A stretch of DNA of 64,000 bases from Candidatus Moraniibacteriota bacterium (GCA_008012175.1 SSEF01000011.1:6413-70412), one strand, 5' to 3'; numbered from the stretch's first letter, positions 16,599-62,502 are shown. Program-made: numbers and translations. The notes: a model not told the origin generated them from the sequence alone.

Positions 16599-17618
16599 CT
16601 AGCTAGCGATAAACTGCGCCAAAGAGCTCTTGGGGAGCTCGACCCGCGACGGCATGTAAAAATAGACCAGATCCTCATTGACGATGCCCATGTCATATCC
16701 TAGACCTGCGGCGGTGGAAGGAAGGTTTAGAAAGCTTTTTTTATAAACAAATAAAAAACCAACTCTCTTACGCAACAATGCGGCCTCGCCTTTGACATAC
16801 AAGTCGACAAAAACAGCCTTCTTGTTCTCGTTGGCTTGCCACGACGTCGCCTTGAGCAAACTGCTCGCTGCAAATTTACACGGTGCCACAGCTTTCTCGC
16901 CGCAAACACTCGTCGGTCTGAAGGCCACTTTGGCGGTCGCGTCGATATCGCACATGCTCAGCTCGAGCCAAGGCTCCGAGTAGGTTAGCTCCAGAGCCGA
17001 GTCCGATGACGAGTTCCACAGAGCCAATTTCTTGCACATGCCACAAAATCTATGCGCAGTCGGCAGGCTCAAACTCAGCATCGGCTCGCCGCAGCCAATC
17101 TCAAAACAAGAGGCCTCGGCGGACTCGGTGGCCCGGCGGGTCAGGCGCAGCTCAAACTGGGCCTCGGCGTGCGGAGTCTCGCTAGAAATATCCAAGGCCG
17201 CCGCCTCTTCTGTCGACAGGCAGATTCGAATGGCATTGTATTTTGCGACGCGGCGAAAAATAGTGTTTAACGACTTGACGGACACGCCGATGCAAAACTC
17301 CTTCGCGCACACATAGTCTTGCAATTCGGTCAGGACCGCCGTGGCCGCCAGGTGTTGGTTTGGACCGCACGCATAAATCTTCAATTGCCGCGCCGGCAGA
17401 CACTTGATCTCGAGCGTCTCGCAGACACCATGGAGCGACTCGACTAGTCGGCCCAACGCCTCGGCGTTCAATAACCTGGCCTCAAAGAAACTCGAACTTT
17501 TCCGCTTCTTGCTGGCCGTAACATTGGTCGCAGCGCCGTCCGGGGCCGGGCGCTTTCCCGGCGGCTGCTTGTACTCCAAAACTTCTTCTTCTTCTTGATC
17601 GGACAGAGACGCCATCAT
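16599..17618 (-). CDS. PCNA: PCNA sliding clamp homolog with an acidic/basic N-terminal extension. A candidate 66-nt in-frame intron lies at 16771..16706.
   Basis: FFEARLLNAEALGRLVESL matches the PCNA N-terminus (MFEARLVQGSILKKVLEAL). The C-terminus ...GYDMGIVNEDLVYFYMP parallels IADMGHLKYYLAPK once the GTAAGAG...CCGCAG segment is removed. A TATA lies about 55 nt upstream. Confidence 0.65.
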   Translation of the reverse strand: MMASLSDQEEEEVLEYKQPPGKRPAPDGAATNVTASKKRKSSSFFEARLLNAEALGRLVESLHGVCETLEIKCLPARQLKIYACGPNQHLAATAVLTELQDYVCAKEFCIGVSVKSLNTIFRRVAKYNAIRICLSTEEAAALDISSETPHAEAQFELRLTRRATESAEASCFEIGCGEPMLSLSLPTAHRFCGMCKKLALWNSSSDSALELTYSEPWLELSMCDIDATAKVAFRPTSVCGEKAVAPCKFAASSLLKATSWQANENKKAVFVDLYVKGEAALLRKRVGFLFVYKKSFLNLPSTAAGLGYDMGIVNEDLVYFYMPSRVELPKSSLAQFIAS

Positions 17619-17667
17619 CCTAGGGAGGAAAATAAGTTTATAATTTCGAAAAGAGGCCCCTTCTGTG

Positions 17668-17684
17668 CTTTTTATATACTACGT
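17668..17684. promoter_or_regulatory. Palindromic TATA (TTTTATATACTAC) shared by PCNA (-) and the basic-protein gene (+).
   Basis: It is about 55 nt from the PCNA ATG and about 12 nt from the plus-strand ATG. Confidence 0.45.
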
Positions 17685-17690
17685 ACACAA

Positions 17691-18038
17691 ATGCCACGTA
17701 AATCTAAAAAAGCAATTGCCACCGCGGCACGACTAGCTGTGGCGCGAGCGATGAAGATTAAGAGAGCGGCCATGTCGAAGACGGCGGCTAAAAAGAAAAA
17801 GAAGGGCACCTCGACCAAAAAGACGATACGGCGCCCGTGCGAGAGCAAGGAGGGCATGGCGCTCTACTTTAAAAAGGACGAGAGCAGGCCGCGACATCGC
17901 TGCTTGTCCACCATATGCAGCCGCTCCAAGAACCCCAACCTCCAGTTTGAGCGGCCAAAGAGCGGCATATGTCCTAGGATACGTGACGTGTTTACGGGCG
18001 AGACGATACGCAACGAACGCGCTCTATTCCGGAGCTAA
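17691..18038 (+). CDS. Small basic protein, histone H1-like or protamine-like, with a Cys cluster.
   Basis: MPRKSKKAIATAARLAVARAMKIKRAAMSKTAAKKKKKGTSTKK... The ATG is 12-20 nt after TTTTATATACTAC. Confidence 0.45.
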   Translation: MPRKSKKAIATAARLAVARAMKIKRAAMSKTAAKKKKKGTSTKKTIRRPCESKEGMALYFKKDESRPRHRCLSTICSRSKNPNLQFERPKSGICPRIRDVFTGETIRNERALFRS

Positions 18039-18089
18039 TAAAAAGAATAATAATACCGCCGGAGGGTGGGTCGGCCGGTAAAACAAGGA

Positions 18090-20030
18090 ATGATGGCCGA
18101 TGCTAACGATTCTTCGAGTGCTGATGATATTCGCGGCCGGGACGCCGGCGCCGGCAGGATACCGGCCAAAAAGCGGAGCATAGGAGCGGGACGCAAGCTG
18201 CGCGTTGACAACGCCACCCTCACTCGGCAACTGCGGCAAGTGCTACTGGCGGGGCACAACATAACATTTGACACGAGCCAGACCGATCGGACGACGATCA
18301 TCTCCGCCAACGCCATTTCCATTGCCAACGTGCAGCCCTTGGACACTCTGGTCGGAACGACCGGCGGCTCGCTCGTCAACGAGCCTTTGGACACGGTCCT
18401 CACCAGCTCATTGATCACGATGACTCGGACCAACGGAAACACGCAACTCGATTTGGAGATACCGGACACGCGCATCGTCAAGTACTATGACAGCACGCGC
18501 ACCTATACGAACACGAGCGCGAGTTTTATGAACGACGGAGTCAACTTTACCTACAACGGCCGCGAGTTTGTCGACACGAACCAGCTCGCCGCCGACAACT
18601 TCATCTTCAAGTACGCGCCCGACCCAAATTCCACCGCGCTCCAAGACGAGCTGAGCGTCTCGATCTCATCGAGCGTCTCCAATTTGCCCTGGCACCTCGA
18701 GAGCACCGCGAGCGCGCCCACCGCTGCGCTTTCGGCCACGCTGAACGGAGACTCTATCTATGCTACTTCATTTTCGGCCGCACAAGACTTGAAAATGTCC
18801 GCCACCAGGTACGCCACAGGGGGCCTGGCCTACCCCAACGACTACACCATCGTCTTGGCAGGCACGTTCCCGATCGACCAGACCGCGTCCAACACGTTCT
18901 TCAGCCTGTCGGGAACGACGACAATCTATCCGCTCTCGTTTGGCAACACGACCCTGCAAAGGGACGCTCTCGTGTATAATCTCGGCGAGGCTCATTACAT
19001 TCCCTATGTTCAAAACACGGGAATCTATGTGTTTCGAGTGTCCTTCACGACCGCCTTCACCTCCCTCCTAGACGTCTTCTTCAACGGCCACAAGGTCTAC
19101 ACCAACGCCATCTCGAACACGCTCACGGCCAAATCGCTCGGCCTCGGCGGCCTGCTCAGCCTCGGCTCCTCAACAAACACGGCCTCCTTTTCCATGTCCC
19201 TGCTCACCATGATCGGTTATGCCCAGGCGCTCTCCGATCAACAATGTATTTCGGTGAGCAAAGCGCTCAATTTCGCCAAGCAAGTCTTGCCCGCCAGCAT
19301 CCCCTATCCCAGCGCGCCCACGGCACTCATTCGCGCGCCCAGCATGAGCGCCACGTCCATAAGCGGCTCGGTTTCGCTATTTGGCACGGCACCGTTCGAC
19401 CTGCATCAGACCACGCCAGCCAACCAACCCAGCTATGTGACGCTCTACGGCGGGAGCATAGTTTTTCCCACGTACAACTTGAAATTTTCAGGCGCGCAAG
19501 CCAACATGCTCACCACGAGCGCGATCCCTGCTCGAGAGTCGCTCGTATCGGGCACCTTCGCCATAGCGTACTTGCCCAACGTGAGCGCGGCCAACGACAA
19601 CGAAATTCTGACGGTGGTGGTGCAGTCCGACAGCATCAAGCTCTTGACCCGCTACGTCGCCGGCGTGCACACCTTCTCGCTCGTGATGAACGGCACGCTA
19701 AAATGTAGCTCGGCCATTTCGCATGTGGCGGGCACAAACGACGAGCTCGTGCTCTTTTTGGTCAAGAATCAAACGTCCTTCGGCTTCGTCGCCGTGCGCG
19801 TCGACTCTCTAACAATAGTCGGCTCGTGCGCCTTCCCTTACGCCGCCGCAGGGAACGGCCTCAGCTCGCTCACGGTCGGCCGAACGAGCACGCCGACGAG
19901 CGTGTTTACGTACTTCCTGGGTGACATGTGGTTCTATCCGCGCTCGCTAGCCGGCTACGAATACAAGCTGCACACGGCGCAGTTCAAACAACTTTACAAC
20001 TTGCCACTCAGTGGCAGTATTTTTTCTTAA
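18090..20030 (+). CDS. Structural glycoprotein-like protein with two ConA/LamG-like regions.
   Basis: 647-aa protein from the ATG at 18090 in ORF 18066..20030. It is S/T/N-rich with many N-x-S/T sites and beta-strand-type segments (FFNGHKVYT, LVMNGTLK). Composition is similar to the 12268 gene product. Confidence 0.55.
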   Translation: MMADANDSSSADDIRGRDAGAGRIPAKKRSIGAGRKLRVDNATLTRQLRQVLLAGHNITFDTSQTDRTTIISANAISIANVQPLDTLVGTTGGSLVNEPLDTVLTSSLITMTRTNGNTQLDLEIPDTRIVKYYDSTRTYTNTSASFMNDGVNFTYNGREFVDTNQLAADNFIFKYAPDPNSTALQDELSVSISSSVSNLPWHLESTASAPTAALSATLNGDSIYATSFSAAQDLKMSATRYATGGLAYPNDYTIVLAGTFPIDQTASNTFFSLSGTTTIYPLSFGNTTLQRDALVYNLGEAHYIPYVQNTGIYVFRVSFTTAFTSLLDVFFNGHKVYTNAISNTLTAKSLGLGGLLSLGSSTNTASFSMSLLTMIGYAQALSDQQCISVSKALNFAKQVLPASIPYPSAPTALIRAPSMSATSISGSVSLFGTAPFDLHQTTPANQPSYVTLYGGSIVFPTYNLKFSGAQANMLTTSAIPARESLVSGTFAIAYLPNVSAANDNEILTVVVQSDSIKLLTRYVAGVHTFSLVMNGTLKCSSAISHVAGTNDELVLFLVKNQTSFGFVAVRVDSLTIVGSCAFPYAAAGNGLSSLTVGRTSTPTSVFTYFLGDMWFYPRSLAGYEYKLHTAQFKQLYNLPLSGSIFS

Positions 20031-21765: not shown

Positions 21766-22540
21766 ATGGGACGAGTTCCGACGGCCAAGCAAGAGCTGAG
21801 AAAACTGCAAGAGCAATTCCTAGCCAGAGCCAACGCGCCGCCTTTGCAAAAGAAGGCCCCTCGCAGCAGCAGCAGCAACAGCAATGTTGCCAAGATTTCG
21901 CTCCGCGCGATCGTTCAACTAGCAAATAGTGTCGCGCCGGGAACATGGAAGCGGCTCGCTCATCCGAACGTGGTCGCCGGTCTTCTGATGGCTCCCTTCA
22001 TGGAGTCGCCGGACCGAATAGTCGAGCCGCCGCCGGCGATCGGAAAGTACAATCCAATTTCGCCCTCCCTAGTGCAATCCATTTTGCCCGCCGAACACCC
22101 GAATTTTGAGGGCCTGTGCCAGTATCTCGGAAACGCGCTGGGCATATGGGCAGACTATTTTCCTTGGTCCAACGTGTTTGCCCCGATGATTCTTTCGCTA
22201 TCCTTTGAGCATAGGCACTGGGCTTGTAGAGGTAAATTGATGTTTTTCTTGCTATCAACGCAGCACACATCACACTTTCTCTTTTTCTCTAGTTTTAATC
22301 GAATCGACGCGCCGCAGTCCCACGAAGCCACCAGCGACCGAGCCCCAAACAGAGTCCTTAACAGAAACACTCGCAGAGCCCCAAACAGAGTCCCTCGCAG
22401 CTTCGGGGGAGCCCGCCGGGGAGAACCAGTACGAATTTTTACAAGAGCTCGTTGGCGACGACCCTACGAACCCGACCGACGTCGAGGAGTTTACGCAGAG
22501 CCTCATACGATCGGCACAAAACTTTGGCCGCGACGTTTAA
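21766..22540 (+). CDS. Hypothetical protein, 2 exons (21766..22231, 22293..22540), with a 61-nt intron and an acidic C-terminus.
   Basis: ATG at 21766. The GTAAAT donor is at 22232 and the TCTCTAG acceptor is at 22292. Exon 2 shifts frame to ...EPAGENQYEFLQELVGDDPTNPTDVEEFTQSLIRSAQNFGRDV. The unspliced read-through is Arg-rich junk. Upstream there are two roughly 45-nt direct repeats at 21545-21650 and a TATA. Confidence 0.45.
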
Positions 22541-22629
22541 CATATTTTTATTTTTATAAGAGAGATTTTTATTAATTTTCAATAAAATATTTGCCAACAA
22601 CACGTTTTTCTCTTTTTTTACTATATAAA

Positions 22630-23766
22630 ATGTCCGCCGCGGCGTCTCTAGTCGCTAGCACGCTAGACTCGTCTATACTTCAGACGAACCTAAATGGCTC
22701 GCTGATTGTAAACTTGAGCACAATAGTGCAACAGATTCCCAATGTTGTAAAAGTCGTTGTGAGCGACAGCATGAGCTCTATAGTCTCGTTTCGAGCGCTC
22801 AATAAAGAGTTTACCAACTTTTACTTGCCTCAGCTCAATCTCAAGAAATTTTATGACTTGGGCAAATTTAACGCCAACTACTTTCAGGCCTTCGGCACGT
22901 CCTTCCCTCTGACGTGCACGAGCAAGCTCTTGTTCGGCCTCGACATATCGATCGTAAACAACCTAAATTTCGCCGGCCAGCAGTTCCTGAGCGTCGGCGA
23001 ACTAGCCGCCTTCCGCTTCATGACGTGCCTCTGCTTCGGCCTCGTCTTCAACCTGTCCCTCGGCGTGGACTGCGCGTGCTATCCCAAGACGCTCAACGAC
23101 TTGTCGGCTCTCTCGGCCGGGATCGGCCTCAATTGCGTCTCCCTGACGTGTCGCAACCAACTCAAACTCAACCCGCTCTTGTTCAGCGACCTCTTGCACA
23201 CCGACTGCGAGAACGTGAATTTCAACGCGGCTTTCGTCTCACTAGACGTTTTCGCCGGCCAAAATCTCAACATAAATTTGGATATCGTACAAACCGACGA
23301 CTCCATTGACATGACCACCGCCCTCACAAATTCAGTGAACGCGCTCACGGCCTCGGTGAACGTGCTGCAGGACCAGCTCAACGGATTCTCCAAGCTGTAC
23401 GCGTCCGACCAGCGCGCCTTCCGCGCCGCCCTGGAGGCCGCACAAGTCTACATAGGCTCTATTGTACCGTGGCCTGTAACTGCGCGCAAATTGCCCAAAA
23501 ACTATCTCGCTTGCGACGGTGCCGTTTACAGTGCCGCCGACTTCCCCCGCCTCTTCGAGATCATTGGCACGACCTACACGTCGGACCAGCAGCCGGCCGG
23601 CAAGTTTCAAGTGCCGGATCTGCGAGGGGCCACGCTATATGGCTCCACGCAACCTACTTCAATAGTGGCGGACAGCCCGAGCTTTACAAAGCTCAATACG
23701 GCTCAGCAAGCGGCCACGGCCACTCTAACTGCCGTCTCCACCTTGTACTTGATAAGGGCCTCGTAA
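22630..23766 (+). CDS. Fibre-like protein with a C-terminal phage tail-collar domain.
   Basis: ATG at 22630, with TACTATATAAA immediately upstream. C-terminal LACDGAVYSAADFPRLFEIIGTTYTSDQQPAGKFQVPDLRGATLYGS matches the Collar domain consensus (LxCDGxxxxxxxYxxLFxxIGTxYG...FxLPDLRG). Confidence 0.65.
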   Translation: MSAAASLVASTLDSSILQTNLNGSLIVNLSTIVQQIPNVVKVVVSDSMSSIVSFRALNKEFTNFYLPQLNLKKFYDLGKFNANYFQAFGTSFPLTCTSKLLFGLDISIVNNLNFAGQQFLSVGELAAFRFMTCLCFGLVFNLSLGVDCACYPKTLNDLSALSAGIGLNCVSLTCRNQLKLNPLLFSDLLHTDCENVNFNAAFVSLDVFAGQNLNINLDIVQTDDSIDMTTALTNSVNALTASVNVLQDQLNGFSKLYASDQRAFRAALEAAQVYIGSIVPWPVTARKLPKNYLACDGAVYSAADFPRLFEIIGTTYTSDQQPAGKFQVPDLRGATLYGSTQPTSIVADSPSFTKLNTAQQAATATLTAVSTLYLIRAS

Positions 23767-23856: not shown

Positions 23857-24432
23857 TTATTCCGAGGCTGGAGCGTCGTACTCGTCTTCGCTATTCAGAA
23901 TCCAGAACTCGTCCTCCCAAGAGCGCTCCTGCTCTCCATCTTCCAAAGAGGGCTGTTGCGGTCGGGGCTCTTCGTCCTCCGAAGAAGAAGAAGAAGAAGA
24001 AGAAAACTGTTGGTGTAGCCGCAGCAGCAGCAGCTGCTCTTCCTCCTCGCATTTAAACTCCTCGGAGGCCGGCTGAGGAGCCTGAAGAGGAGCGGCCGGG
24101 GGCTCGATCGAGGAGAGCATGGCTATGGTGGCCGACAACCGACTATTTTCCCACTTGCAAGCGAGACCATTGTGCGTGATTATGGTCATGTCCTCGCTGG
24201 CGTTATGGAGGCACTGGTACAGCTCGAGCTTCGCGGTCAAATCACGAATGTGCTGCTCCAGCGCGTCAATGTATTCCTGCCGCCGCTGCCGACACTTTCT
24301 AGCCGCGATCCGGTTGCGCTCGCGCCGCCTGTCTTGCGCCTCCGGGTTTGGCGTCGCAGGAGGTTTCGGTTGCTCCGGCTTCCTCGCTGCCGGCGCCCCT
24401 TCCGACAATACAGAAGTTTTCTTTTTAGTCAT
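23857..24432 (-). CDS. bZIP transcription factor.
   Basis: RRERNRIAARKCRQRRQEYIDALEQHIRDLTAKLELYQ is a canonical basic region N-x7-R plus a leucine zipper. There is an acidic Ser-rich C-terminus. Confidence 0.7.
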   Translation of the reverse strand: MTKKKTSVLSEGAPAARKPEQPKPPATPNPEAQDRRRERNRIAARKCRQRRQEYIDALEQHIRDLTAKLELYQCLHNASEDMTIITHNGLACKWENSRLSATIAMLSSIEPPAAPLQAPQPASEEFKCEEEEQLLLLRLHQQFSSSSSSSSEDEEPRPQQPSLEDGEQERSWEDEFWILNSEDEYDAPASE

Positions 24433-24637: not shown

Positions 24638-25874
24638 ATGAAACCAAAGAAAATGAGCAACACTAATATTCTGCAACAACAGCAGCAACAGAAACGAAGC
24701 AGTTTGCCACGCGGAGCAAAGACTCTAGCGAACGAGCTGTTTAAAAGTCTAGCCCAGCAAATGCATCCGCGGTGGCGAAGGACCACCGAGAGGCCCGGCA
24801 CCAGCAAGCCCCCTTCGGTCAAGTCTGTAGGGGCGGTGGACGGCAGTTGTGGCAGCTGCGTCCCAGCCGACCAGCCGCCGCAGCCCTTCTCGGACGACAT
24901 TTACTTCACAGGCCCCATTTACTCGGGGCACTTTTCGCAAGTATGGCAGGGCACAGCCAATAGAGCGAACCCCACCAAGATTGTGGTCAAGTTTAACCGA
25001 AGCGTTAAAGATTTTGAGTACGAGTACGCCCTGCTCAACTATATGCGCCGCTTCACTAGGACGCCGTCGCCGCATCTACTCTATTTGAGCTTTTTGTGCC
25101 CCGTCGCAAACAATGGGATGCCGCCCGGTCTCGGGTTTGACCGAGCCATTTGCGACCTCAGTCAGGTGGTCCGCTTCTCGGTCTCTCTGGACCGCATCGC
25201 CCGCATGGCTACCGAAATTTTTGAGGGCCTGGCCGCGCTACACGACGAGTACGACATTGTTCACACCGACATCAAACTGCAAAATATTTTTGTCTTTTCG
25301 CACGCCATCAAATTGGGTGATTTTGGCTGCGCGCTTCTCAGACGGCCATCTGCCATCCTCCCGCAATGCCCCGACATTGGCCGCCTCGTGGGCAACCCGG
25401 AAGTCACGAGCGTCCCTTTCCGAGCCCCCGAAATTTCCGCAAGTAAGATTTTGTGTGTGTGTGTGTGTCTCTAACACTAATGTCGAGCACGCTAACTTGT
25501 CTCTCTTAGAAAGCCCCGATTTGAACGAGAAGCTCGATGTCTGGAGTGCAGGCGCCGTTTGTTTTGCTCTATTGACTCATGGCCAGTTTCTGATCGATTT
25601 GGCCGGGGCCGAGACCAAGGCGGAGCAGCGGCGCACTCGCTTCGAAAAACTGCTTCGTTTGTTTAACGCCAAGGACAAGGAGGAATCCTTTGAAGGGCGC
25701 TTGGCCCGGCTGGCGGACAAACAGTTTAGCCGCGAGCAGTTGGCGCTTTTTGACCCGCTGTGGCGGGCCGTTTTCGACTTTGACAACAAGAGCCGGGCGA
25801 GCGCTGCTGAGACGGCCCGGCTCCTCAGAAACTTTATTTTGCCTCGCATCGACGAGCCGTTAATTTTTGAATAG
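24638..25874 (+). CDS. Ser/Thr protein kinase, 2 exons (24638..25442, 25510..25874), with a 67-nt intron.
   Basis: Gly-loop GPIYSGHFSQVWQG, IVVKF (the VAIK Lys), HTDIKLQNIF (catalytic loop), KLGDFG (DFG motif) and APEI are present. DVWSAGAV (subdomain IX) follows the GTAAGA...CTCTCTTAG intron, which contains (GT)9. A TATA lies about 35 nt upstream. Confidence 0.75.
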
Positions 25875-25929
25875 TTTTTTAATAAAAAGTTTTTAACAGT
25901 ACTCTCTTTCTCTCTATCTCTCTTTTATT

Positions 25930-26607
25930 ATGCAACGAGACTTGTCCAAGTTGCCGAGCGCGAGCGCTATTCTTAGCCCGCTCAGCATGCCGCAGCTCCA
26001 AAACATTGTGGCCGATATTAGCACGGACCTGGCCGTCACAGAGCAAATTGTGGCGAGCCTTGAGGCCCGCGTAGACGAAAAGCTAGCTTCGCTACAGCGC
26101 GCCCTCGTGCCTGTCGGCTCGATATTCTGTTTTTCCAGCGGCCAAGTGCCGGCCAATTTTCATTTGTGCGACGGCTCGGCCTTCTCTAAAGCCGATTTCC
26201 CCGAGCTATTCGCCGCCGTCGGCAGCACGTACACGACGACCAACTCTCAACTCTATTTTAATATTCCCGATTTACGTGGCATGTTTGTGCGCGGCCACGA
26301 CTACGACCGGGGCGTGGACTCGCAAAAGAAGCGGCCGCTCGGGTCCGTCCAGGCCAGCCAGACGAGCATGCCTTCTTCGGGCCCGTTTCAAGTCAGCCCG
26401 GCGGGCAACCATCAACACACTACGTTCTTTTGGTACGCGCCACTCTCCGGAGCCGGCAACTCAAACTTTGTGGCCGTGTCGAGTTTGGGCGGATCGGTCA
26501 ATGTACCGACCACCATGAACGGAGCGCACTCCCATCAAATTTCAGGCGGAGACGCGGAAACGTGCCCAATTAACGTATCGCTGAATTACATCATCAAGAT
26601 TGTTTAG
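25930..26607 (+). CDS. Phage tail-collar domain protein.
   Basis: PVGSIFCFSSGQVPANFHLCDGSAFSKADFPELFAAVGSTYTTTNSQLYFNIPDLRGMFVRG is the Collar consensus. AHSHQISGG lies downstream. Confidence 0.7.
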   Translation: MQRDLSKLPSASAILSPLSMPQLQNIVADISTDLAVTEQIVASLEARVDEKLASLQRALVPVGSIFCFSSGQVPANFHLCDGSAFSKADFPELFAAVGSTYTTTNSQLYFNIPDLRGMFVRGHDYDRGVDSQKKRPLGSVQASQTSMPSSGPFQVSPAGNHQHTTFFWYAPLSGAGNSNFVAVSSLGGSVNVPTTMNGAHSHQISGGDAETCPINVSLNYIIKIV

Positions 26608-27178: not shown

Positions 27179-27200
27179 CTATTTCCGCCCATGTTTTTTA

Positions 27201-28670: not shown

Positions 28671-28758
28671 GACCGAGTTACGTTGGCGTAAAATCAAGAG
28701 AGTATTTCTAACTTGAAAAATTCGCGCAGTTGGTATTATTTGATCTTGTGTAAAAGAA

Positions 28759-28797
<39 letters not shown>

Positions 28798-28827
28798 AAT
28801 AATTACAAACAACAACAAACGACAAAT

Positions 28828-30489
28828 ATGGTCCTCTCCTCTCTCCGAGACATTTCGCTTCGAAGCGCCTTGTGCACCATCAAAAATCTCAAAAGGCTCC
28901 GGCCGCTAACCAACATGAACCTGGGTGAGTCGAGCGCCCTGCGCGCGCACATGTTCCTCCATTGCCCCAACTTGTACCGAGCCATGTTTAAGAGTAATTT
29001 CGCCGGATTGGCCTACGACAAAAAGGACGCGGACGCATGGGAGGGCTACATCCAAACCGAACGGGATATGCCGCCGCCGGAGAGCGCGCTCTACGACGAC
29101 GAAGAATTTTGTCAAATGCTCGTGCGTAAATGGCTCTTTTCCTACATTCCGGCGGCGAAGAGGACGATGCGCCTCGTACACTATTGCTTCAAAACCAATC
29201 GGGTTTCGGCGGAGACTGTGAACGAGTACCCGCACGTGGCCTGCTTGTACCCCAATTCTATGTTTCTCATGAAGCTACAGCACATAACCCCCGAGATCAT
29301 TGAAACCTATTTTGCGACCGGCCGGGCCGACCTGGCGAAGGACCTCGACCCGACACAATACATTTGCTTTCGGCAAGTGCTGAACCAGAGACCCGCACTG
29401 GCCGCGGCCGCGCCACCAGCTACCTTACGCTCTTTGCAGTGCCTATATCTGAGGAGGGCAGTGCCGGGGCCAATAGTAGAAATTGCGCGCCAGTTCGAAA
29501 TAGTCGAACTTTATCCCGCCGACTACTTCACCGACCAAGTCTGTCGAGACCTGCTGGCCAAGACCGCGTTTAGGCGGCTCGCGAAGCGGCTACGTATGCT
29601 CGAAAGCATGTGTCAAGCGGCTTTGATGCAAGACGTCGAAAATTACAGGTACATTGCGAAAACCGGGCACTGGCCATTGGAGTGGATCATGGCCATTTTG
29701 TCGCGGGCCTCCGACCCGGGCGAGGCCTGGCGATTCATGTATCCGAAGCACCTGCCCCGGAGCAGTATGAGCCAACAAGAGAAGGAGGAGCTCTGTTGGC
29801 TGCTCATACGCGACGCGCCCAACGCGAGCCCGGGCCACTTGGAGGACGAGGATTTTGATGCGCTCACGCTCGAGCAGAAACGCTACTTTTTGATGTACGC
29901 ATCTCTGAAGGTCGCAAACGTGGCCCTCGAATGGCTCAAGATGTTTGGTGGGATCGGCGACGTGCTTACGCAGGAAATTTGCGATCACTTGATTTTGACG
30001 GTGAAACCCTCCAATGGCGTGGAACAACTGGTGCAAAACAATATTTTTATCCTGCTTCCGAACCAGTTCAAAACGGAGCGGCTATGCACGCACTACATAA
30101 AACATGAGCTCAACTGCTGGCCGCGGGTGCCCAAGACGAGCGAGAATCTAAAATTGTGGTTTGAAACGCACAAACCGGCCGCCAATTGCGACGCGTACTT
30201 GGAAGAGTTTCCTATGGATTGCGCCGAGACGCGAAAGATTATAGCTCACTTCCCCAAGGTGGTTGCGCGCCTCTCCAATCTCGACCTCTCTGTGGCCACC
30301 GAGTTTTGCTTGGAGAACCGAGAATGTCTCGAGTACATTAGAGAGCCCGCCCTCTCCAACGTTTTAACAAAATGCGCCAAGAACGAGAGCGGGGAGTGGC
30401 GAGAAAACTGGCAAGAGAATTTGCGCTTTCTAAAGGAGCACTGCCACAAACCGTTCCAGATGCTCCTCTTTTACTCTTTTCTACATTAA
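28828..30489 (+). CDS. Hypothetical protein, paralog A of a convergent pair.
   Basis: 553 aa. It shares HCPNLYRAMF/DDEEFCQMLV and a long central block (RLRMLESMCQAALMQD...LIRDAPNASP...KRYFLMYASLK) with the 30600..32327 product. Confidence 0.55.
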   Translation: MVLSSLRDISLRSALCTIKNLKRLRPLTNMNLGESSALRAHMFLHCPNLYRAMFKSNFAGLAYDKKDADAWEGYIQTERDMPPPESALYDDEEFCQMLVRKWLFSYIPAAKRTMRLVHYCFKTNRVSAETVNEYPHVACLYPNSMFLMKLQHITPEIIETYFATGRADLAKDLDPTQYICFRQVLNQRPALAAAAPPATLRSLQCLYLRRAVPGPIVEIARQFEIVELYPADYFTDQVCRDLLAKTAFRRLAKRLRMLESMCQAALMQDVENYRYIAKTGHWPLEWIMAILSRASDPGEAWRFMYPKHLPRSSMSQQEKEELCWLLIRDAPNASPGHLEDEDFDALTLEQKRYFLMYASLKVANVALEWLKMFGGIGDVLTQEICDHLILTVKPSNGVEQLVQNNIFILLPNQFKTERLCTHYIKHELNCWPRVPKTSENLKLWFETHKPAANCDAYLEEFPMDCAETRKIIAHFPKVVARLSNLDLSVATEFCLENRECLEYIREPALSNVLTKCAKNESGEWRENWQENLRFLKEHCHKPFQMLLFYSFLH

Positions 30490-32531: not shown

Positions 32532-32572
<41 letters not shown>

Positions 32573-47469: not shown

Positions 47470-49064
<1,595 letters not shown>

Positions 49065-49121: not shown

Positions 49122-51552
49122 TTATATGTATTGGCGCGCGTGCGCAATCGCATTCTCGTAAAACCTCTCAAAATTATACGTATTCGTGCCGTGCACGAGC
49201 TCTTGTGTTTTTTCTGCTCGAGGCTGCGCGGGCGCGCGCTTCTTCCCAGGGGAGACAGTTTCGGCCAGGTTGACGACAAAGCCTCCGCGGCGAGAGCACG
49301 GCATAAAGAAGTCGTAGACGGCCAAGCTGCAAAGGCGAAACCATTGAGACGAGACTGAAAGAGAGGGTAAGAGAGAAAAATGTATTTGTGAGAGAAGGAG
49401 GAGAGTGAAACTTACCGGAGAGACGGCGCGCCTCACATTTACGCGCCATTTCGAGATTTTGCGTGAGCAATTTGTACTCGGAAAAGAACCAGACCCGGCT
49501 GAGACCGATCATGAACACGACGAAATAGTTGGTCAAGTGGCCGCAGATGCGCAGGAAACACGATATGCTATCGCGGCCGGTGCCACTGCTAATCACCTCT
49601 CGGTCTGTGTCGTAGAGGCCGCAAATGTGTTTGTTTTGCAAAAAACAAGAGCGCATCTTGGACCACACCTCGAGCGCGCCCGTCAGGTTCTCTTTGGGCA
49701 GGAGGCCGCTAGGACTGTTCCTCATCGAGTCGCTCAAGAGTTGCTTAAAGTTGTTCTCGAGAAACGAACAAAACGGCCGATCGAAGAATGTGAGCCAGCG
49801 GTTGGAAAGGGCGCAATCCAGTTCCTCTATCGTGTGCAACAAGCGAGCTAGTGTGAGAGAGGGAGACGGCAAACTTAGAGTTTGTGAGAGAGTGTGTGTT
49901 GAAGAATAAGTACTTACCCGGCGGGGCGGCGGAGGCCGTCAGGGCCGTTTTGCTCACATTCTGAAACTCGAATAACGAGAGGCTCACTTTTTGGTCGAGA
50001 CTGAGCAGACCCCCGCCACCGCTCGTTTCGGGCGGCTGTTCTTTGAGGGGTCCGTCCACGAATTTGAGGAGGGCCGCTTCGGCGGTAAAGACGGGCGGCT
50101 CGGTGAATTGCACGATAAAAATTCGCAAAATATTGTTCACGAGAGCCAAGTGCTTCCGAGCGGCGGCCCCGTCCGACTTGATGCCGTCGAGATAGCACAT
50201 CCAATAGGCAAAAACGCATGTCAAGGGCAACTCGTTCATAATCAAAGCCAATTCCTCGGCTCCTCTAACCGCCGTGTCCACTGCCTCGGCTCCTCTAACC
50301 GCCGTGTCCACTGCCTTGGCTCCTCTAACCGCCGTGTCCACTGCCTTGGCTGCCTCGTTTCCGTCCACTGCCTTGGCTGCCTCGTTTCCGTCCACTGCCT
50401 TGATCGCCGTGCTCGCCACGTTCGCCGACTCGCCGCGTTCGCCGACTCGCCGTTTCTTGGCCGGACCCTCACCACTGTTCACGCTCCTCTTATCTGCCAC
50501 TGCCTCCACGTTCCTTTTATTTGCTCCCGTCTCCGGGGCCTCCGTCTCAGAGTCATCGCAATAGTCAATCTTCCGTTTCAGAGGATGACGGGGCGGCAAG
50601 GGCGTCTTCACCACTCCGAGCGGCCCTCGGTACCAGAGAAAGACGGACTCGAACGCCTGGCGCAGATACCGAATGTCAAAGAACGAGCACGAAATGTAGT
50701 CGTTGGCCGAGAGCATGGCATATACCTTCAACGCTAGCCTAAACACATACTCGCGCTCGATCCGCGAATAGGTCCGTGCAAGCCTATCCGAAAGTTCGTC
50801 CAAGTCTTTGATGACCGGATGGCTGTGGTTGATGGCCGCGTTCAGCAGAAAAACCTCGCTCTCGCCGTACTCCGAGCGCCGTATCGAATAGACTCCGGCG
50901 CGCTGGCAGGACGGGAAAAACGACACGAAATCGGTGTCGTCCGAGAAGATCGAGATCCGGCTGACAAAAGTGTTTTGCAGGCTCGAGTCGGGTGAAACGA
51001 GCACGAGCTCCCGCGTGCCGCGCTCTTCTTCTTGCTCGAGCAATTGGTGGCATCGCGACACGATATACTCGTCCGTGTCCATTTCGGCCTCTTTGATCTT
51101 GATGAGCCCGACCGCGTTCTCGTCGTACTGGGAGTAGCGCAGGTGCAGGGCCGCGCGAAGCTCCTCGAGATAGTACTCGAGCATAGCATAGTCCGCCTCG
51201 ACCCGTACGTCTTTGGACGTGCGCACATTGGTTTCGGCGCGTCGGTAGCAGCGCCACATTTTCATAAAGTTGCGCGAGAACTTGCTGTCAAAAATGAGCT
51301 CGATCGTGCGAGCCTCTTGCCTATACAGATCGTCGGACTTGAGCAGCTCGAATTGGAGCAGATCGGCGCACACAAAGTCCACAAATTCGGCGCTAAATTC
51401 GCTCGTAGTGAGGTTGGCGAAGCGAGCGCCCATTTGATGCGTGCGCAGTTTCAGCCAGTAGAGGTTGGCGTCGATAAACACATGGCTCGACGACGCTTTC
51501 GGCACCTTGACTTGGCTGGCGGTGAATAAATCATTGAAGCCGACAATTCCCA
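49122..51552 (-). CDS. FEN1/XPG-family nuclease of about 760 aa, 3 exons (51552..49918, 49847..49416, 49354..49122).
   Basis: The N-domain is MGIVGFNDLF...HVFIDANLYWLKL. The I-domain is ELVLVSPDSSLQNTFVSRISIFSDDTDFVSFFP (compare GKVYAAATEDMDCLTFG). The introns are 70 nt (G|GTAAGT...CACTAG) and 61 nt (G|GTAAGT...CTTTCAG), and both junctions preserve the frame of the ORF-track pieces. CTTATATAATTTG lies about 47 nt upstream and is shared with PolB. Confidence 0.6.
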
Positions 51553-51594
51553 TCGCAATAACAAAACACACAAAACTTCTTGACAACACGATAC

Positions 51595-51681: not shown

Positions 51682-54047
<2,366 letters not shown>

Positions 54048-54768: not shown

Positions 54769-55752
54769 ATGTCCAGTGAACAAGAATTTTACACAAACCT
54801 CAGTAGGCTATGGTCTCCCTCGAGCAAAAGCTTTTCGATAGATCCGGGCGTTAGAAATTTTGGCTTTTCGAGTCTCGAGTCGCTCACTCACTTGTGCCTC
54901 GACTACGACTCGTTTGCAAATTTAGAGAGAAATTTACCCAAACTTTTCCGCAGCCTGTTTGCAGTCATCGATCCGTCGACGGCCGTTTTCTATATTGAAA
55001 ACCAACGGGCCTCGTGCCAGAACCAACGTATCGAATGGCTGACCCGGGGCATCCTCCACGCCCTAGGAGCCGGCCGCGTCATAGGCGTCGCGCCGTTCAC
55101 TCGAAACAAATGGTGTCGTCTCGAGCTGGATTGGACCTATGTAAAGTGTAGTACGCGGAAAGCCTTCAAACTGGCTCACGACACGAATCCCAAGTTCCGG
55201 CAACTCGTAACGGGCTGGAAGCGGTACCATATAAATATTCCCGCATTGCAACTCAAAGCAACACAAAATATTTTCGAACTCGCCAAATCGGACGAATTTG
55301 TGGACACTGTGCTCTTGTTGGCTATCAATGCGCGTAAAAAAGTGCCCCGTCAAAAACTCTCTTCTAACGAGCCTCGCAAGATTAAGCGCCTCGCCAATAC
55401 CAGACGGATCAGTAAGGAAAAGACTGCCACATCCGCGGCCGCTGCCGCAACCTACTCTCCAACAACTGCAGCAAGCGCATCAACAACACACTCTACAGCA
55501 ACAACAAGCTCAACAGCGGCAGCCGCACGCTCTACAGCAACAACAAGCTCAACAGCGGCAGCCGCACGCTCTACAGCAACAACAACAGCGGCAGCCGCAC
55601 GCTCTACAGCAACAACAAGCTCAACAGCGGCAGCCGCACGCTCTACAGCAACAACAACAGCGGCAGCCGCACGCTCTACAGCAGCAAACATTGTGGCAAG
55701 ATGGGCAGCAGCAACTTCAAGCAGAGAGGCCGAGACAAAAGAGGCCTGCTGA
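54769..55752 (+). CDS. RuvC-like Holliday-junction resolvase (poxvirus A22 / Ydc2 family) followed by a S/T/A repeat tail. The 3' end is uncertain.
   Basis: SFSIDPGVRNFGFSSLE matches the RuvC motif I (GIDPGxxxxGxAV). AVFYIENQ matches the motif with the catalytic Glu. The tail derives from 39-nt tandem repeats and overlaps the TBP-like ORF in another frame. Confidence 0.5.
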   Translation: MSSEQEFYTNLSRLWSPSSKSFSIDPGVRNFGFSSLESLTHLCLDYDSFANLERNLPKLFRSLFAVIDPSTAVFYIENQRASCQNQRIEWLTRGILHALGAGRVIGVAPFTRNKWCRLELDWTYVKCSTRKAFKLAHDTNPKFRQLVTGWKRYHINIPALQLKATQNIFELAKSDEFVDTVLLLAINARKKVPRQKLSSNEPRKIKRLANTRRISKEKTATSAAAAATYSPTTAASASTTHSTATTSSTAAAARSTATTSSTAAAARSTATTTAAAARSTATTSSTAAAARSTATTTAAAARSTAANIVARWAAATSSREAETKEAC

Positions 55753-56752
55753 ACGGTCGACGGAGCCGAAACCGGCCCCAAAAATCCGCCGCATCGACGA
55801 CAGGCCCGGGCACTCCCAAGTGGCCGATAGCTTGTTTGAACGGCTGGCTGGAACGGAGAGAACGGTCGCCGGGAGCGGAGAACAAGCTGCGGCCATAGCC
55901 AACGAGGAGCTTTTTCGAGCGTCGACGTGCTTCAAAAACGCCGTGTGCACCGTCACCACCAATCTAATCTTCAATCTCCGCCTATTTACGAATGTCTTTG
56001 GCGGCCAGTTCACAGGCAAGCTCCCGGCGAACCGGCTCGTCGTCAAGATTGGCGGCCACCGATACACCATAATCACGTACTCGTCGGGGAAAATCATCCT
56101 AACCAATTACTTTTTCCTCATCAACAACTCGGCCGTCTACAACCTCTTTGTCAACCTGCTCGAGCTCTTGTACGCCCTCGGGATCGCCAAGTTGCAACCC
56201 GGAACGGGGTATTGCGAAAAATGTAAAAATGACGACGACGAGGACGAGACCGGCGGCAGCTGCAGCCAATGCCAGCAGCGGAGGCAGATCGAAATGTTGT
56301 TCCTCATTGAGAACTGCATATTTTCCTTCCAAATCGCGCCCCACTTCTTCGACCGCCGCTTCGCCAACATTGTCCATGAGAGCGAGAGCACGCTCTCCAT
56401 GGTTTTGCGGAAGCCCCGAAACATGCGGGCCGAAGGCTTGAGCGCGTTCCACGACTACTTGAAGTCGGTCCTCGCCGCCGAGCACTACCAATTCACGTCG
56501 AGCGCTTCGTGCAAACACGACAACTTTCCCTCGGACCTGGTGAAATTCGCCATTCAGCGGACCGACCACGCCAAGCTGGCCAATTACAAGAGCCCGGCTT
56601 CGCGAAAGCGAAACAACAACAATTTTGTCATGCAAAGGCTCGCCATTCTCATCTTCCGCAACGGAAAAATGATCGTCACCGGCATGCAAACATGCGAAGA
56701 CCTCGAGACTACTTTTAAGATTTTGTTTGCTATTGTGAATTTTTTTTTCTAA
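55298..56752 (+). CDS. TBP-like (TATA-binding protein fold) protein with an N-terminal Gln-rich repeat. The 5' end is uncertain; an alternative ATG is at about 55328.
   Basis: The first repeat ...RLVVKIGGHRYTIITYSSGKIILTNYFF and the second repeat FVMQRLAILIFRNGKMIVTGMQTCEDLETTFKIL match the two TBP core repeats (LIFxSGKxVxTGAK). The polyQ (QQQQAQQRQPHAL)x5 is reminiscent of eukaryotic TBP N-termini. Confidence 0.55.
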   Translation: MWTLCSCWLSMRVKKCPVKNSLLTSLARLSASPIPDGSVRKRLPHPRPLPQPTLQQLQQAHQQHTLQQQQAQQRQPHALQQQQAQQRQPHALQQQQQRQPHALQQQQAQQRQPHALQQQQQRQPHALQQQTLWQDGQQQLQAERPRQKRPAERSTEPKPAPKIRRIDDRPGHSQVADSLFERLAGTERTVAGSGEQAAAIANEELFRASTCFKNAVCTVTTNLIFNLRLFTNVFGGQFTGKLPANRLVVKIGGHRYTIITYSSGKIILTNYFFLINNSAVYNLFVNLLELLYALGIAKLQPGTGYCEKCKNDDDEDETGGSCSQCQQRRQIEMLFLIENCIFSFQIAPHFFDRRFANIVHESESTLSMVLRKPRNMRAEGLSAFHDYLKSVLAAEHYQFTSSASCKHDNFPSDLVKFAIQRTDHAKLANYKSPASRKRNNNNFVMQRLAILIFRNGKMIVTGMQTCEDLETTFKILFAIVNFFF

Positions 56753-59306: not shown

Positions 59307-59332
59307 GAGCGGCGGCGCGCGCACACATCATC

Positions 59333-59803
59333 ATGTTTACGTTCGACGACAAGTTCATTTACACTTGGGAACTGAGGGACGGGCAGCTGCTCCGCCCCCT
59401 CCGGCTCACAATCTTTGAGCTGACGGGCCAAATCATCTCGAGACCTCTGCGAAATTTTCACTTTTTCAACCACAGCGCAATCATTTTGGGCTATGACGCC
59501 ACCTCCTATCTCGAACCCGTCTACGTATGCTACAAAACACTGGCCGGCTACGAGATCGCCAAATGGCCCGGCTCCGGGAGCGACATTAAAATGACAATCG
59601 ATCCGCGTATTTCGCGGGGCCGCTGCCTGGCCCGGCTCGAGCAATTTTTCAATTCGCGGCGGCACCGCTACAACTTGCCGGCGTACAATTTGACAATAAG
59701 CAATTGCCAAAATTTTAGCCACGCCATGGTATACGGAGGCGACATCCACCTGGCCCTGACAGCGGCCGCCTTTATATTTCTCATTGCCTTTTTTACGAGT
59801 TAA
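59333..59803 (+). CDS. PPPDE/DeSI-type permuted papain-fold peptidase-like protein with a C-terminal TM segment.
   Basis: NHSAIILGYD (His) and NLTISNCQNFSHAMVYG (Cys) resemble the PPPDE H...NCNHF signature. AATAAA is at the stop. Confidence 0.4.
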   Translation: MFTFDDKFIYTWELRDGQLLRPLRLTIFELTGQIISRPLRNFHFFNHSAIILGYDATSYLEPVYVCYKTLAGYEIAKWPGSGSDIKMTIDPRISRGRCLARLEQFFNSRRHRYNLPAYNLTISNCQNFSHAMVYGGDIHLALTAAAFIFLIAFFTS

Positions 59804-59833
59804 TAAAAAATTTTTTGTGTAAAAATGCTTTTT

Positions 59834-62502
59834 TTATTCGGTCGGGAAAAGGTTTAGTTTGCGCAGCCGGTCAGCCACAAGAGTGGCGGGCTGGTTGAAA
59901 ATTGCTCGCAGGGCCTTTAGGAGGAAGGCCTGGTCGACGTGGATCTGCAAACTGGATCGGCATCGCGACAAAACCACGTACAAAGTCCGTAGTATGTTGT
60001 TCTTGAGGACTGTGTCCCCGAGCAAATACATCTTTTCGTTGGTGAGCGTGGCTCCTTGAACACAAAAAACTGTTTGCGCGTAGTTGCTCGTCCAGTTGAA
60101 GCACATGTACATGACTTGGCGGCGACCCATGAGCGGCGAATGGTAGGCACAAGGCGCGTGCGAGGACGAAGTCGGTTCGTTGCGCCGGGCGAGATCGCAT
60201 TGCTCGCAAAGGTAGCGAACGACCGGCCGGCACGATGCGAATTGCCGCGTCTCCAGGTCATAAAACACCATGTGCAATGAGCGCGCCATCGACTGCATAT
60301 CGGGAGCGAGGCGCTGCGTCACCTTCATGATTGTGAGTTCGTCCAGCGCTAGTTTATGTTGGGCGGCTGTGGCGGATAGTTTGGCCACGAGCATGGTTTC
60401 AAAAACAGGCCGGGCCTCGGCGTCCAGCTCGGCGTCGGCAAAAAAGAAGCCGATAAAGACGCCGACCTGGCCATTGTAGTTGCCTTGCTGGGAGTTGTTT
60501 TCGCGACAGCGGATAAACATCCCCGGGAAGAAGGTGTTTCGGCTGTTCATCAAGTTGGCCGGCACGTTGTTTTGGATCGAGGCCACTTGCTTCTGGTCCG
60601 CGTCCGAGGCGAACATGAGCACGTTCCTGAGAGAGACGGGCAGGGCTCGGGCCCGCGAGGCGAGCCAGCAGTTTTGCGAAGCCGACGAGCGGTTAATGAG
60701 GCCCTTGCCGTCAATGTGGTCAAAGACGGTGAAGTTGAAGCTGTTCTCGTAGCCAATGACGATGGGTATCTGGAACGAAAAGAAGCGCTCGCGTAGACTC
60801 GCGCTCGCGCTCTTGAGGACGGCCGGCATGTCGTCGAGGGCGGCGGCCAGGTGCTCGTAAAAATCGAGCTCGGAGCGAAGCCAGGCCACCAGCGAGTTGG
60901 CCTGGCGCTGCGCCTCCACGAGCGATTCGAGAACTTTGTCCAGAGTCAGTTCGCGCTCCACATTGATGCTCCGATTGATCTTCTCGACCCACATGTGCAG
61001 CCACTTGTTCTCGAGTTTCGACGACGCGGCTTGGCTCGTCTCGCGCTTCGTCCGCGTTTGCCGGGCAATCACTTGCCTCAGCTGGAGGAGCAACTGTCGC
61101 AAACGACTGTTGCGCTCGGCCTCTCCTTCCTCACAGCCGTCTTTTCCGTCTCTTTCATCTTTTCCGTCTTTTCCGTCTTCTTCGTCCTCTTCGTCCTCCC
61201 CAGCCTCTTGTTTCTGGCCCCGCCCATGGCCCCGCGCCGCCACTCCCTGTTTGTTTGCAAATCGAACAATTCTAATGTTGGGTCCGTTCTCGCACTTGTA
61301 GGCGCACGGATATTTGTGAAAGAGCTCGCCGCTGTCGACGTCCCAGTTTATGAGTCCGCCCATCACAGGCGGCAACTGGCACGAGTCTCCAATCAGGATG
61401 CAGAATTTTTCGCGCAAAGCGTCGAGCACGGGGAAGAGCAGCTCTTGGTTGTACATGGACATTTCGTCAAAAACAAAGACTCGTCCCAGGTTGATGCGGT
61501 TCGTAATGTCTAAAAAGAGAGAGAGAGAGAGAGAGCACATGAAAGCACATGAAAAAAGAGAGAGAGCACATGAGCAAAAAGGATGGTTTTACATGGTTTG
61601 GCGAGGCCGGCCCTGATCGCGGCGGCGTATTGGCGTGGGTCGCAGCCGGGTTTCCGGATCGGCAGACCCATTTGTGAATGCAAAACCCGGGCAAAAGAAT
61701 AGGCATTGCGCGTCTTTGCGGTCGGGGTGGTGATGAGCACCCGCTCAAAGTGCTCGTCCTTGTACTGCCGTCGGTAGTACTCGCTAAAGAGCGGGCAGAG
61801 CCGCTCAATCTCAAAGGACTTGCCGACGCCTGGCGGCAGGTCAATCACCAACCAGCAGTCCGGCGACTTGACGTACTCGAATTTGACAAAGAAGAGGAAC
61901 ATGGCGAGAACGCCCACTTCAATCATTGAGCTCACTTGCACAAGTTTTTCATGTGGCGCCTCGGCCATAGCCTGCAGGAGCAGCATGTCGTCCTCGCTCC
62001 GCGGACAGCACATGCGGCAGAGCGCTTCCAAGAACTGGCGTTTGGCGGCCTCCGAAACGAGACCGCTGAGGTAATTATCGAGCCATTGGAATCCAGTTTT
62101 GTGTGTGGTCGGATCGAAAGGAATATTATAGTCGGGGATGGGCGCCCCGTCCAAATCGAGGACGGAGTAGCTGTCCGCTGCCAAAGCGTCCTCGCTCTCG
62201 TCCTCGGAGAGGTCGTCTACAAAAGTGAGGTTCTCTAGTCGACGAGGTTTCTTGATCGTAACCGCATCACCTGGTTGCTTAGACGCTGCGCGTTTATGGA
62301 TTCGTTGTCCCACGTCACCTTCTTTTTCTTCCGCGGGACCGTCGCCGCCTCTAGCGCCCTTCGCTTTTCGCCATCCACCAACCGCTCCTCTTTCTTTGTC
62401 GACGCCACCGACGTCATTGGCTCCTCTTTCTTTGTCGACGCCACCGACGTCATTGGCTCCTCTTTCTTTGGTGGCGCCGTCGCAGCTTTGACTCGTATAC
62501 AT
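59834..62502 (-). CDS. PIF1/RecD-like superfamily 1 helicase, 2 exons (62502..61593, 61509..59834). The true 5' end is uncertain.
   Basis: Walker A is LPPGVGKSF. Walker B is FVFDEMSM. The signature LIGDSCQLPPV is Pif1/UL5-like. The C-terminal TLYVVLSRCR resembles helicase motif VI. The intron is 83 nt, T|GTAAAAC...(TC)n...CTTTTTAG. Confidence 0.7.

Follow-up and report, generated by a model that had tools for sequence, protein, structure and literature searches.

How does a contig deposited as bacterial come to carry core replication genes that are broken by short intervals with GT and AG ends, and what would remove those intervals from the messages? The question is raised by a 64,000-nucleotide (nt) stretch of DNA filed as Candidatus Moraniibacteriota bacterium (GCA_008012175.1 SSEF01000011.1:6413-70412), the whole of which we refer to as the window; it represents 64 of the 95.7 kb of its contig, about one third of which, the contig ends included, lies beyond it. 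Between positions 16,599 and 62,502, genes for a family B DNA polymerase (PolB), a helicase, a FEN1-like nuclease, PCNA and a protein kinase are all interrupted in this manner. The answer that we favor, with a probability of roughly 0.85, is that these are genes of an undescribed double-stranded DNA (dsDNA) virus of a eukaryote, which would be transcribed by RNA polymerase II in the host nucleus and processed by the host spliceosome. A reading of the window made from its sequence alone (hereafter the sequence-only reading) had proposed that a virus-like gene set carries GT-AG introns of the spliceosomal kind, and this remains the best interpretation in view of conserved intron sites, an intronless allele, distant PolB proteins that are uninterrupted and Pfam matches that span the junctions.

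The 16 introns listed by the sequence-only reading are all present where it placed them, with GT...AG ends, and the lengths that it gave for PolB (92 and 105 nt), the helicase (83 nt), the nuclease (70 and 61 nt), PCNA (66 nt) and the kinase (67 nt) are correct. Its total of about 20 was somewhat high, since a single newly found intron (7411-7610, minus strand) brings the count to 17. These lie in 13 of about 41 genes (~32%), at 0.27 per kb and 1.3 per intron-bearing gene, and measure 38-200 nt. They are given here with the lengths of proteins in amino acids (aa), ORF denoting an open reading frame.

2163-2245, plus strand: 83-nt intron (GTAGGT..CTAAC..ATAG), phase 0, in the ORFan gene 1803-2545
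7411-7610, minus strand: 200-nt intron (GTGCCC..TCTAG) with repeated CACTAACGAGC units, in the Forkhead gene 7090-7772; newly found
8658-8736, plus strand: 79-nt intron (GTTTCC..AAAG), phase 2, in the ORFan gene 7849-10045 (705 aa)
16706-16771, minus strand: 66-nt intron (GTAAGA..CTAAAC..GCAG), in frame, near the 3' end of the PCNA gene 16599-17618
22232-22292, plus strand: 61-nt intron (GTAAAT..CTAG), phase 1, in the ORFan gene 21766-22540
25443-25509, plus strand: 67-nt intron (GTAAGA..GCTAAC..TTAG), phase 1, in the protein kinase gene 24638-25874
33660-33735, minus strand: 76-nt intron (GTAAGC..CTGAC..TTAG), phase 0, whose removal fuses ORFs 33736-35184 and 32640-33659 into 822 aa
38418-38494, plus strand: 77-nt intron (GTAGGC..CTAAT..ATAG), phase 2, in the small basic-protein gene 38230-38636
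43016-43077, minus strand: 62-nt intron (GTAATC..TTAG), intron 2 of gene 41902-44035 (664 aa)
43436-43512, minus strand: 77-nt intron (GTTAGC..ATAG), intron 1 of gene 41902-44035
48075-48112, minus strand: 38-nt intron (GTAACT..TTAG), unusually short, intron 2 of gene 47470-49064
48381-48473, minus strand: 93-nt intron (GTAAGT..CTGAT..ACAG), phase 0, intron 1 of gene 47470-49064
49355-49415, minus strand: 61-nt intron (GTAAGT..TCAG), phase 1, intron 2 of the FEN1/XPG-like gene 49122-51553
49848-49917, minus strand: 70-nt intron (GTAAGT..CTAG), phase 1, intron 1 of the FEN1/XPG-like gene 49122-51553
53053-53144, plus strand: 92-nt intron (GTATTG..GCTAAC..CAAG), phase 0, PolB intron 1
53760-53864, plus strand: 105-nt intron (GTAAGC..TAAG), phase 0, PolB intron 2
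61510-61592, minus strand: 83-nt intron (GTAAAA..TTAG), phase 1, in the superfamily 1 (SF1) helicase gene 59834-62502

Excision restores the frames of the adjoining ORF pieces, as had been claimed, and yields uninterrupted coding sequences of 109-861 aa: PolB (722 aa), the helicase (861 aa), the FEN-like protein (766 aa), the kinase (389 aa) and ORFan products of 822, 705, 664, 487, 237, 219 and 109 aa. The 38-nt intron at 48075-48112, a site covered by no relative, is required for frame continuity of gene 47470-49064. Domain matches behave in the same way, each running as one stretch over its junction once the intron has been removed. The Pkinase match of the protein kinase scores 70.4 instead of 43.8 bits, the PolB profile match, which had covered positions 61-246, extends over 61-379, the helicase AAA_19 match moves from 19 to 27.5 bits and so above the cut-off, and the spliced Forkhead protein matches Pfam Forkhead at 44.5 bits (aa 13-92, profile positions 7-82). 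The conserved motifs that had been described as split across junctions are, in fact, whole: DVWSAG of the kinase lies 10 residues past its junction, the intron separating subdomains VIII (APE) and IX, while GDxxQLPPV of the helicase lies ~45 residues inside exon 2, with the junction between motifs Ia and II.

Two gene assignments of the sequence-only reading have to be narrowed. The helicase, which it called PIF1-like, belongs to SF1 (Pfam AAA_19, AAA_30 and Viral_helicase1) but has no Pfam PIF1 match, and its best PDB matches, to the SF1B helicases RecD2 and Dda, are weak (E ~0.8). The FEN1-like nuclease retains that name by resemblance of motifs only: the gene at 49122-51553 returned no Pfam match (E<=0.1), XPG_N and XPG_I included, and neither the single sequence, in phmmer, nor a four-sequence profile found a PDB match, and its motifs, read by eye, are an invariant MGIxxF, IDxNLYW, FDxK, EAPxDTDDY and FSxDTDF. 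The PCNA intron, which is in frame and free of stops, belongs to the weakest class of evidence among the introns, its support coming solely from splice signals, a GC content of 36% and a coding score that is the third-lowest of 317 windows.

Side observations attach to two of these genes. At 62235-62502 (minus strand), the start of the helicase ORF overlaps the end of the upstream ORF 62235-62999 in another frame, within a repeated segment, and the two may be separate genes or a single one with an undetected junction. Directly after the PCNA stop, at 16440-16590 (minus strand), stand ~4 tandem copies of a ~37-nt unit, gctagagcaccgagagccaggctggctccaagagccc. A near-identical copy of PCNA N-terminal coding sequence (17390-17490, minus strand) occurs at 36790-36860 on the plus strand as segments of 52 nt and 24 nt (98% and 96% identity), placed in opposite orientation within a large acidic ORF (35636-38113), where it is read as FFEARLLNAEALRRLVEIKCL; the repeat agcaaagcact is present in five copies upstream of the ATG of that ORF at 35636.

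Comparison with related genomes adds evidence of another kind. By PolB amino acid identity, the nearest relatives are L001-L004 (~80%) and L007, from a biofilter metagenome (~75%), followed at some distance by L005 and L006 (~37%). At sites shared with L001 and L007, the introns compare as follows.

PolB site 1: 92 nt in the window; 62 nt at the same codon in L001; none in L007
PolB site 2: 105 nt in the window; 68 nt in L001 and 67 nt in L007, at the same codon
FEN-like intron 1: 70 nt in the window; present in L001; 62 nt in L007; equivalent site, phase 1
FEN-like intron 2: 61 nt in the window; 64 nt in L001 and 63 nt in L007, at the same site
Helicase intron: 83 nt in the window; the L001 locus ends before the gene; 67 nt in L007
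Intron 1 of gene 47470-49064: 93 nt in the window; 60 nt in L001; the L007 locus starts beyond the gene

In blastn, the alignment with L001 ends exactly at the PolB intron borders, and at PolB site 2, FEN-like intron 2, the helicase intron and intron 1 of gene 47470-49064 both codon and phase are identical in all genomes that cover them. Homologous introns measure 60-68 nt in the relatives as against 61-105 nt here, and none can be aligned to its counterpart, so that the comparison of intron positions with homologues, which the sequence-only reading had suggested as a check, finds conserved codons and phases around unrelated intron sequences. L007 is precisely intronless at PolB site 1, reading ATCATCAAG followed directly by GGACTC, unbroken, and by virtue of this allele the borders of PolB intron 1 are fixed independently of any consensus. 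Within the PolB set P0006-P0013, which aligns through the junctions, distant uninterrupted proteins (P0007, P0008, P0011 and P0013) do so at both, and P0004, P0005 and P0006 read through the site of intron 1. The distant relative L005 carries three AT-rich introns at other PolB positions, one of which is missing from its close relative P0005; the clade has thus seen repeated gain or loss of introns. The L005 genome is AT-richer than the window and its introns, within 8900-11320, are AT-rich rather than CT-rich. The composition of introns seems to track that of the genome (or the host) and not to be inherited.

The splice signals themselves are consistent at their ends, with GT at the start and AG at the finish of all 17 introns in the window and of all nine homologous introns of L001 and L007. 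Among the 16 introns of the sequence-only reading (mean 74 nt, range 38-105), 13 have a length that is not a multiple of three and 13 have a YAG acceptor; their sense strand is 72% pyrimidine and 12% G, with a GC content of 42% against 54% for the window. Donors favor A at +3 (14/16), A at +4 (12/16) and G at +5 (10/16), compared with base frequencies of 0.23-0.26, and the pyrimidine-rich tracts always fall on the sense strand of their own gene. The Forkhead intron additionally contains repeated ACTAAC; it holds 4-5 copies of CACTAACGAGC, a UACUAAC-like branch motif. No sign of an introner family was found, the introns resembling one another only in their (CT)n and (GT)n microsatellites. An automated search for junctions, filtered by coding score, overlooked several true introns and returned spurious long ones, and we kept only junctions supported by frame and homology. 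Frame switches called by a coding hidden Markov model at 5151, 11458, 16134, 40078, 55453/55754 and 62259 correspond to low-complexity sequence or overlapping ORFs without a convincing GT..AG pair and were not counted.

What kind of genome, then, carries these genes? The window has a GC content of 54%, is densely coding on both strands and consists mostly of ORFan genes. Its PolB fragment is 100% identical to the hypothetical protein E6Q06_01975, filed under Candidatus Moraniibacteriota bacterium, and only four further proteins matched that fragment among 5.8 billion. E6Q06_01845, E6Q06_01925 and E6Q06_01975 are GenBank locus tags on the contig, which was deposited as a metagenome-assembled genome (MAG) of the Candidate Phyla Radiation, and prokaryotic gene calling has shortened the intron-bearing genes; PolB, for example, was called as 386 aa with its end inside intron 1. 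Judging from its genes for a TATA-binding protein (TBP), bZIP and Forkhead factors, a eukaryotic-type protein kinase, PCNA and a family B polymerase, we take the bacterial label to be a binning error and the contig to belong to the genome of a large dsDNA virus, not previously described, with a eukaryotic host.

23857-24432, minus strand: bZIP transcription factor gene
55298-56752, plus strand: TBP homologue, start uncertain, overlapping the low-complexity tail of the upstream RuvC-like ORF

That upstream ORF has the IDPGVRNFG motif of a RuvC-like resolvase, with no Pfam match, and within 54769-56752 (plus strand) it overlaps the TBP ORF by ~450 nt in two frames. The overlap is a low-complexity repeat rich in Q, A, T and S, which is much shorter in L001 and L007, and it is ambiguous where the first gene stops and where the second begins. 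The same virus was found in the Logan assemblies SRR6439730-34 (98.8-99.9% identity); a Logan search beyond the window returned only short contigs of it, and GTDB does not include it in its representative genomes.

Signals for expression surround these genes. Of 39 genes, 18 have a TATAWA in the 150 nt upstream and 21 have an AATAAA in the 80 nt that follow the stop, frequencies that compare with 7% and 4% of random windows, respectively; examples of such flanking regions are 7800-7848, 44040-44106 and 17619-17680. These signals, together with the TBP, bZIP and Forkhead factors of the virus, suggest nuclear expression by host RNA polymerase II. In the mechanism that we propose, host RNA polymerase II would transcribe the virus genes in the host nucleus, the major (U2-type) spliceosome of the host would excise the introns from the virus pre-mRNAs, and the host cleavage and polyadenylation machinery would finish the mRNAs. 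Tracts of (CT)n or pyrimidine also occur on the sense strand just upstream of gene starts, on the plus strand at 12225-12270, 25897-25933 and 28756-28801 and on the minus strand at 32517-32590, 47405-47466 and 62998-63054. As introns of 5' untranslated regions they were rejected, no GT..AG frame being present, and they are probably 5' leaders, promoters or initiator regions.

The polymerase and a packaging ATPase bear on the kind of virus.

40677-41894, plus strand: FtsK/HerA-type (A32-like) genome-packaging ATPase, an intronless gene for a 405-aa P-loop protein
51682-54047, plus strand: family B DNA polymerase gene, three exons, 722 aa, without an exonuclease domain

Only seven relatives of the ATPase exist outside its own contig. 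Its structural model, with a predicted local distance difference test (pLDDT) score of 75, has an FtsK/HerA fold, and the best viral structural matches are the A32-like ATPases of nucleocytoplasmic large DNA viruses, adenovirus IVa2 and the ATPases of virophages and PH1/corticovirus. The modelled fold points to the double jelly-roll (Bamfordvirae) side and away from the HK97/terminase side to which mirusviruses and herpesviruses belong. No HK97 capsid, portal or terminase was found in the window, nor any Pfam match to herpes- or HK97-type morphogenesis proteins, and Pfam-type scans of the window detected no D5 primase-helicase, VLTF3 or RNA polymerase. PolB has only ~220 residues ahead of motif A (GDFTSLYPT), and DNA_pol_B_exo1 gave no match in any of six members of its family. 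That family is small, with 59 matches in 1.84 billion representative proteins, all of them metagenomic and with the short N-terminus conserved; in IMG/VR only distant PolB proteins occur (22-28% identity), mostly from giant-virus MAGs. To our knowledge, Forkhead domains are confined to opisthokonts and amoebozoans, and short introns of CTAAC type and CT-rich leaders resemble those of fungi; the Forkhead gene, these introns and the leaders may be taken together as a weak hint that the host is a fungus or an amoebozoan.

A number of observations weigh against this account of a spliced nuclear virus. Five introns have degenerate donors (GTTTCC, GTATTG, GTTAGC, GTAATC and GTAACT) that depart from GTAAG/GTAGG, and of the 16 listed introns only seven have a CTRAY branch-like motif (CTAAC, CTGAC or CTAAT), situated 18-43 nt before the 3' end. 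When the two strands were scanned with a weight matrix for donors and acceptors, trained on the seed introns, non-overlapping matches numbered 21 and 25, as against 14-25 in Markov shuffles, which is not above chance. A length of 38 nt is near the lower size limit of spliceosomal introns, and the intron at 48075-48112 is of just that size; the PCNA intron could stay in the mRNA as coding sequence. No ORF of the window matches the Pfam capsid families, so that the viral class hangs on the fold of one ATPase; as a capsid candidate, the conserved 654-aa protein encoded at 18066-20030 gave an AlphaFold2 model with a pLDDT of 39, which was not used, and an empty PDB profile search. The data would fit an integrated or latent provirus as well as a free virus. 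Finally, we infer all three of intron removal, the host spliceosome as its agent and nuclear replication or expression, the case for splicing drawing on DNA sequence throughout. Since the splice-site matrix by itself does no better than shuffles, that case is built on reading frames, domain continuity and comparative data.

Among the alternatives, the one that survives best is that the window belongs to a eukaryotic chromosome, as an endogenous viral element whose genes were invaded by host introns after integration, the density of introns then reflecting residence in the host genome. 'Decaying endogenous viral elements' are listed among the few intron-bearing nucleocytovirus sequences (PMC12768974), the introns here, like the non-coding DNA of a host, abound in (CT)n and (GT)n microsatellites, and with 64 of 95.7 kb covered the ends of the contig fall outside our view. 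We nevertheless regard this explanation as unlikely, though not negligible. All 41 gene models are intact and 83% of the window is coding; no host-like multi-exon gene occurs within the 64 kb; PolB exon 1 is under strong purifying selection relative to L001, with 0.12 nonsynonymous (pN) against 0.73 synonymous (pS) changes per site; and syntenic relatives are found as separate contigs in at least five other, unrelated metagenome sequencing projects. Furthermore, intron sites are common to genomes that differ at about 25-40% of residues, and since their positions are shared by such diverged genomes, the introns would be older than the divergence of lineages that are still intact. These features speak against a decaying insertion; an integrated yet functional provirus would be compatible with host-nuclear transcription and splicing of virus genes.

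Far less probable is another mechanism altogether, whether group I/II self-splicing, inteins, programmed frameshifting or translational bypassing. Other giant viruses do contain group I introns and inteins, but no Rfam 15 family scores at or above its gathering threshold in the window, intervals of 38-200 nt are too short for group I/II ribozymes, most of the interruptions contain stops and shift the frame in a manner foreign to inteins, and GT-AG ends, GTAAG donors and pyrimidine tracts are present. The weakest explanation, that the frames are broken by errors of sequencing or assembly or by gene-inactivating low-complexity insertions (pseudogenes), can be set aside: microsatellite tracts are error-prone and small indels (a 10-nt (AG)n and a 30-nt one, near 1195-1753) separate the assemblies, but the interruptions are 38-200 nt long with GT..AG ends rather than slips of 1-2 nt, the codons interrupted in L001 and L007, whose assemblies derive from other samples, are the same, and error of the sort that the sequence-only reading had itself raised is effectively refuted by independent Logan assemblies that reproduce the intron-bearing region, L010 and L011 carrying intron 2163-2245 unchanged.

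If host-nuclear splicing of virus genes is accepted, how unusual would it be? One PBCV-1 intron is located in the DNA polymerase gene of that chlorovirus. Chloroviruses have a handful of introns per genome and are not related in sequence to the window, where the density is far higher. A few spliceosomal introns and a nuclear phase are on record for them (PMC5995976, PMC12768974). The sequence-only reading called a virus-like gene set of this intron density rare; the density is indeed high, but precedents have been published for pandoraviruses (PMC5995976) and mirusviruses (PMC12768974). The mechanism is already known, and what is new is the lineage, with its high intron density.

In pandoraviruses, RNA-seq has validated spliceosomal introns in 7.5-13% of genes, at ~1.2 per intron-bearing gene (PMC5995976). 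They resemble the present virus in being large dsDNA viruses with a mostly ORFan proteome, they have a nuclear phase, and their introns per interrupted gene are close to the 1.3 seen here. However, the fraction of genes interrupted here (~32%) is roughly 2.5-4 times theirs, the window differs in its GC content of 54% and in a PolB without exonuclease, and no sequence relationship to pandoraviruses is detectable, searches with PolB and the ATPase returning only metagenomic proteins.

Mirusviruses come closer in the introns themselves. Their GT-AG introns peak near 80 nt, have WCTAAC/CTGAC branch motifs and reach 0.18-0.65 per kb, with up to 36% of genes interrupted and intron sites that vary between close relatives; they also have a TBP core gene, few Pfam-annotatable genes and a predicted nuclear reproduction (PMC12768974). 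The mean of 74 nt, the 0.27 introns per kb and the 32% of genes interrupted here are all similar. The intron-rich members are the Okeanovirales, the Styxvirales and an Aurantiochytrium episome of the Soporavirales; PolB, PCNA and a Holliday-junction resolvase are missing from the intron-rich orders, in which it is mainly the HK97-type virion genes that are interrupted (PMC12768974). Here, by contrast, PolB and PCNA are present and interrupted, a RuvC-like ORF is present and intronless, and the ATPase has an FtsK/HerA rather than a terminase fold.

A further comparison is with the Ariadnavirales and Manovirales, divergent nucleocytoviruses that are predicted to depend on the host nucleus and have in part been mis-binned as bacterial MAGs, and which carry an A32-type ATPase, PCNA, a RuvC-like resolvase and a Pif1-like helicase (Yutin et al., bioRxiv 10.64898/2026.08.29.747986). 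The same preprint reports no intron invasion in nucleus-dependent nucleocytoviruses and calls the contrast with mirusviruses 'enigmatic' (bioRxiv 10.64898/2026.08.29.747986). Unlike these viruses, the present one has PolB and many introns, and its ATPase retrieves no named virus. We would tentatively, at slightly less than even odds, place the contig and its ~40-60 metagenomic relatives in an undescribed high-rank nuclear lineage of Varidnaviria type with an A32 ATPase, possibly infecting a fungus or an amoebozoan, with an exonuclease-less PolB and an intron invasion on the mirusvirus scale whose gains and losses are still visible among close relatives. Were such a lineage to be borne out, it would be a counter-example to the claim that predicted nuclear nucleocytoviruses have escaped intron invasion.

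The wider consequences follow from the dependence that introns create. A virus with spliceosomal introns needs the host nucleus and a functional spliceosome throughout its infection cycle. Until 2025 only pandoraviruses exceeded 10% of intron-bearing genes, and mirusviruses then joined them, in lineages without replication genes of their own; the virus considered here, with its A32-type ATPase, retains PolB, PCNA, the helicase and the nuclease, and exactly those genes are interrupted. The clean presence or absence of introns among close relatives makes the clade a small and tractable system for intron gain and loss. It is absent from IMG/VR, and prokaryotic gene callers fragment its genes, so that standard virus-discovery pipelines would miss it.

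Elsewhere in the window, two ORFan genes in convergent orientation (28828-30489, plus strand, and 30600-32327, minus strand) are paralogues with 24% identity over 561 aa (E=1e-36). A cluster of genes on the plus strand (12268-16143, 18066-20030, 22591-23766 and 25930-26607) probably encodes surface or fibre proteins, comprising a LamG+RCC1 protein (1291 aa), two proteins with phage tail-collar domains and the conserved 654-aa protein, which is rich in S and T. The genes of this cluster are all intronless and are conserved in the distant relatives L005 and L012.

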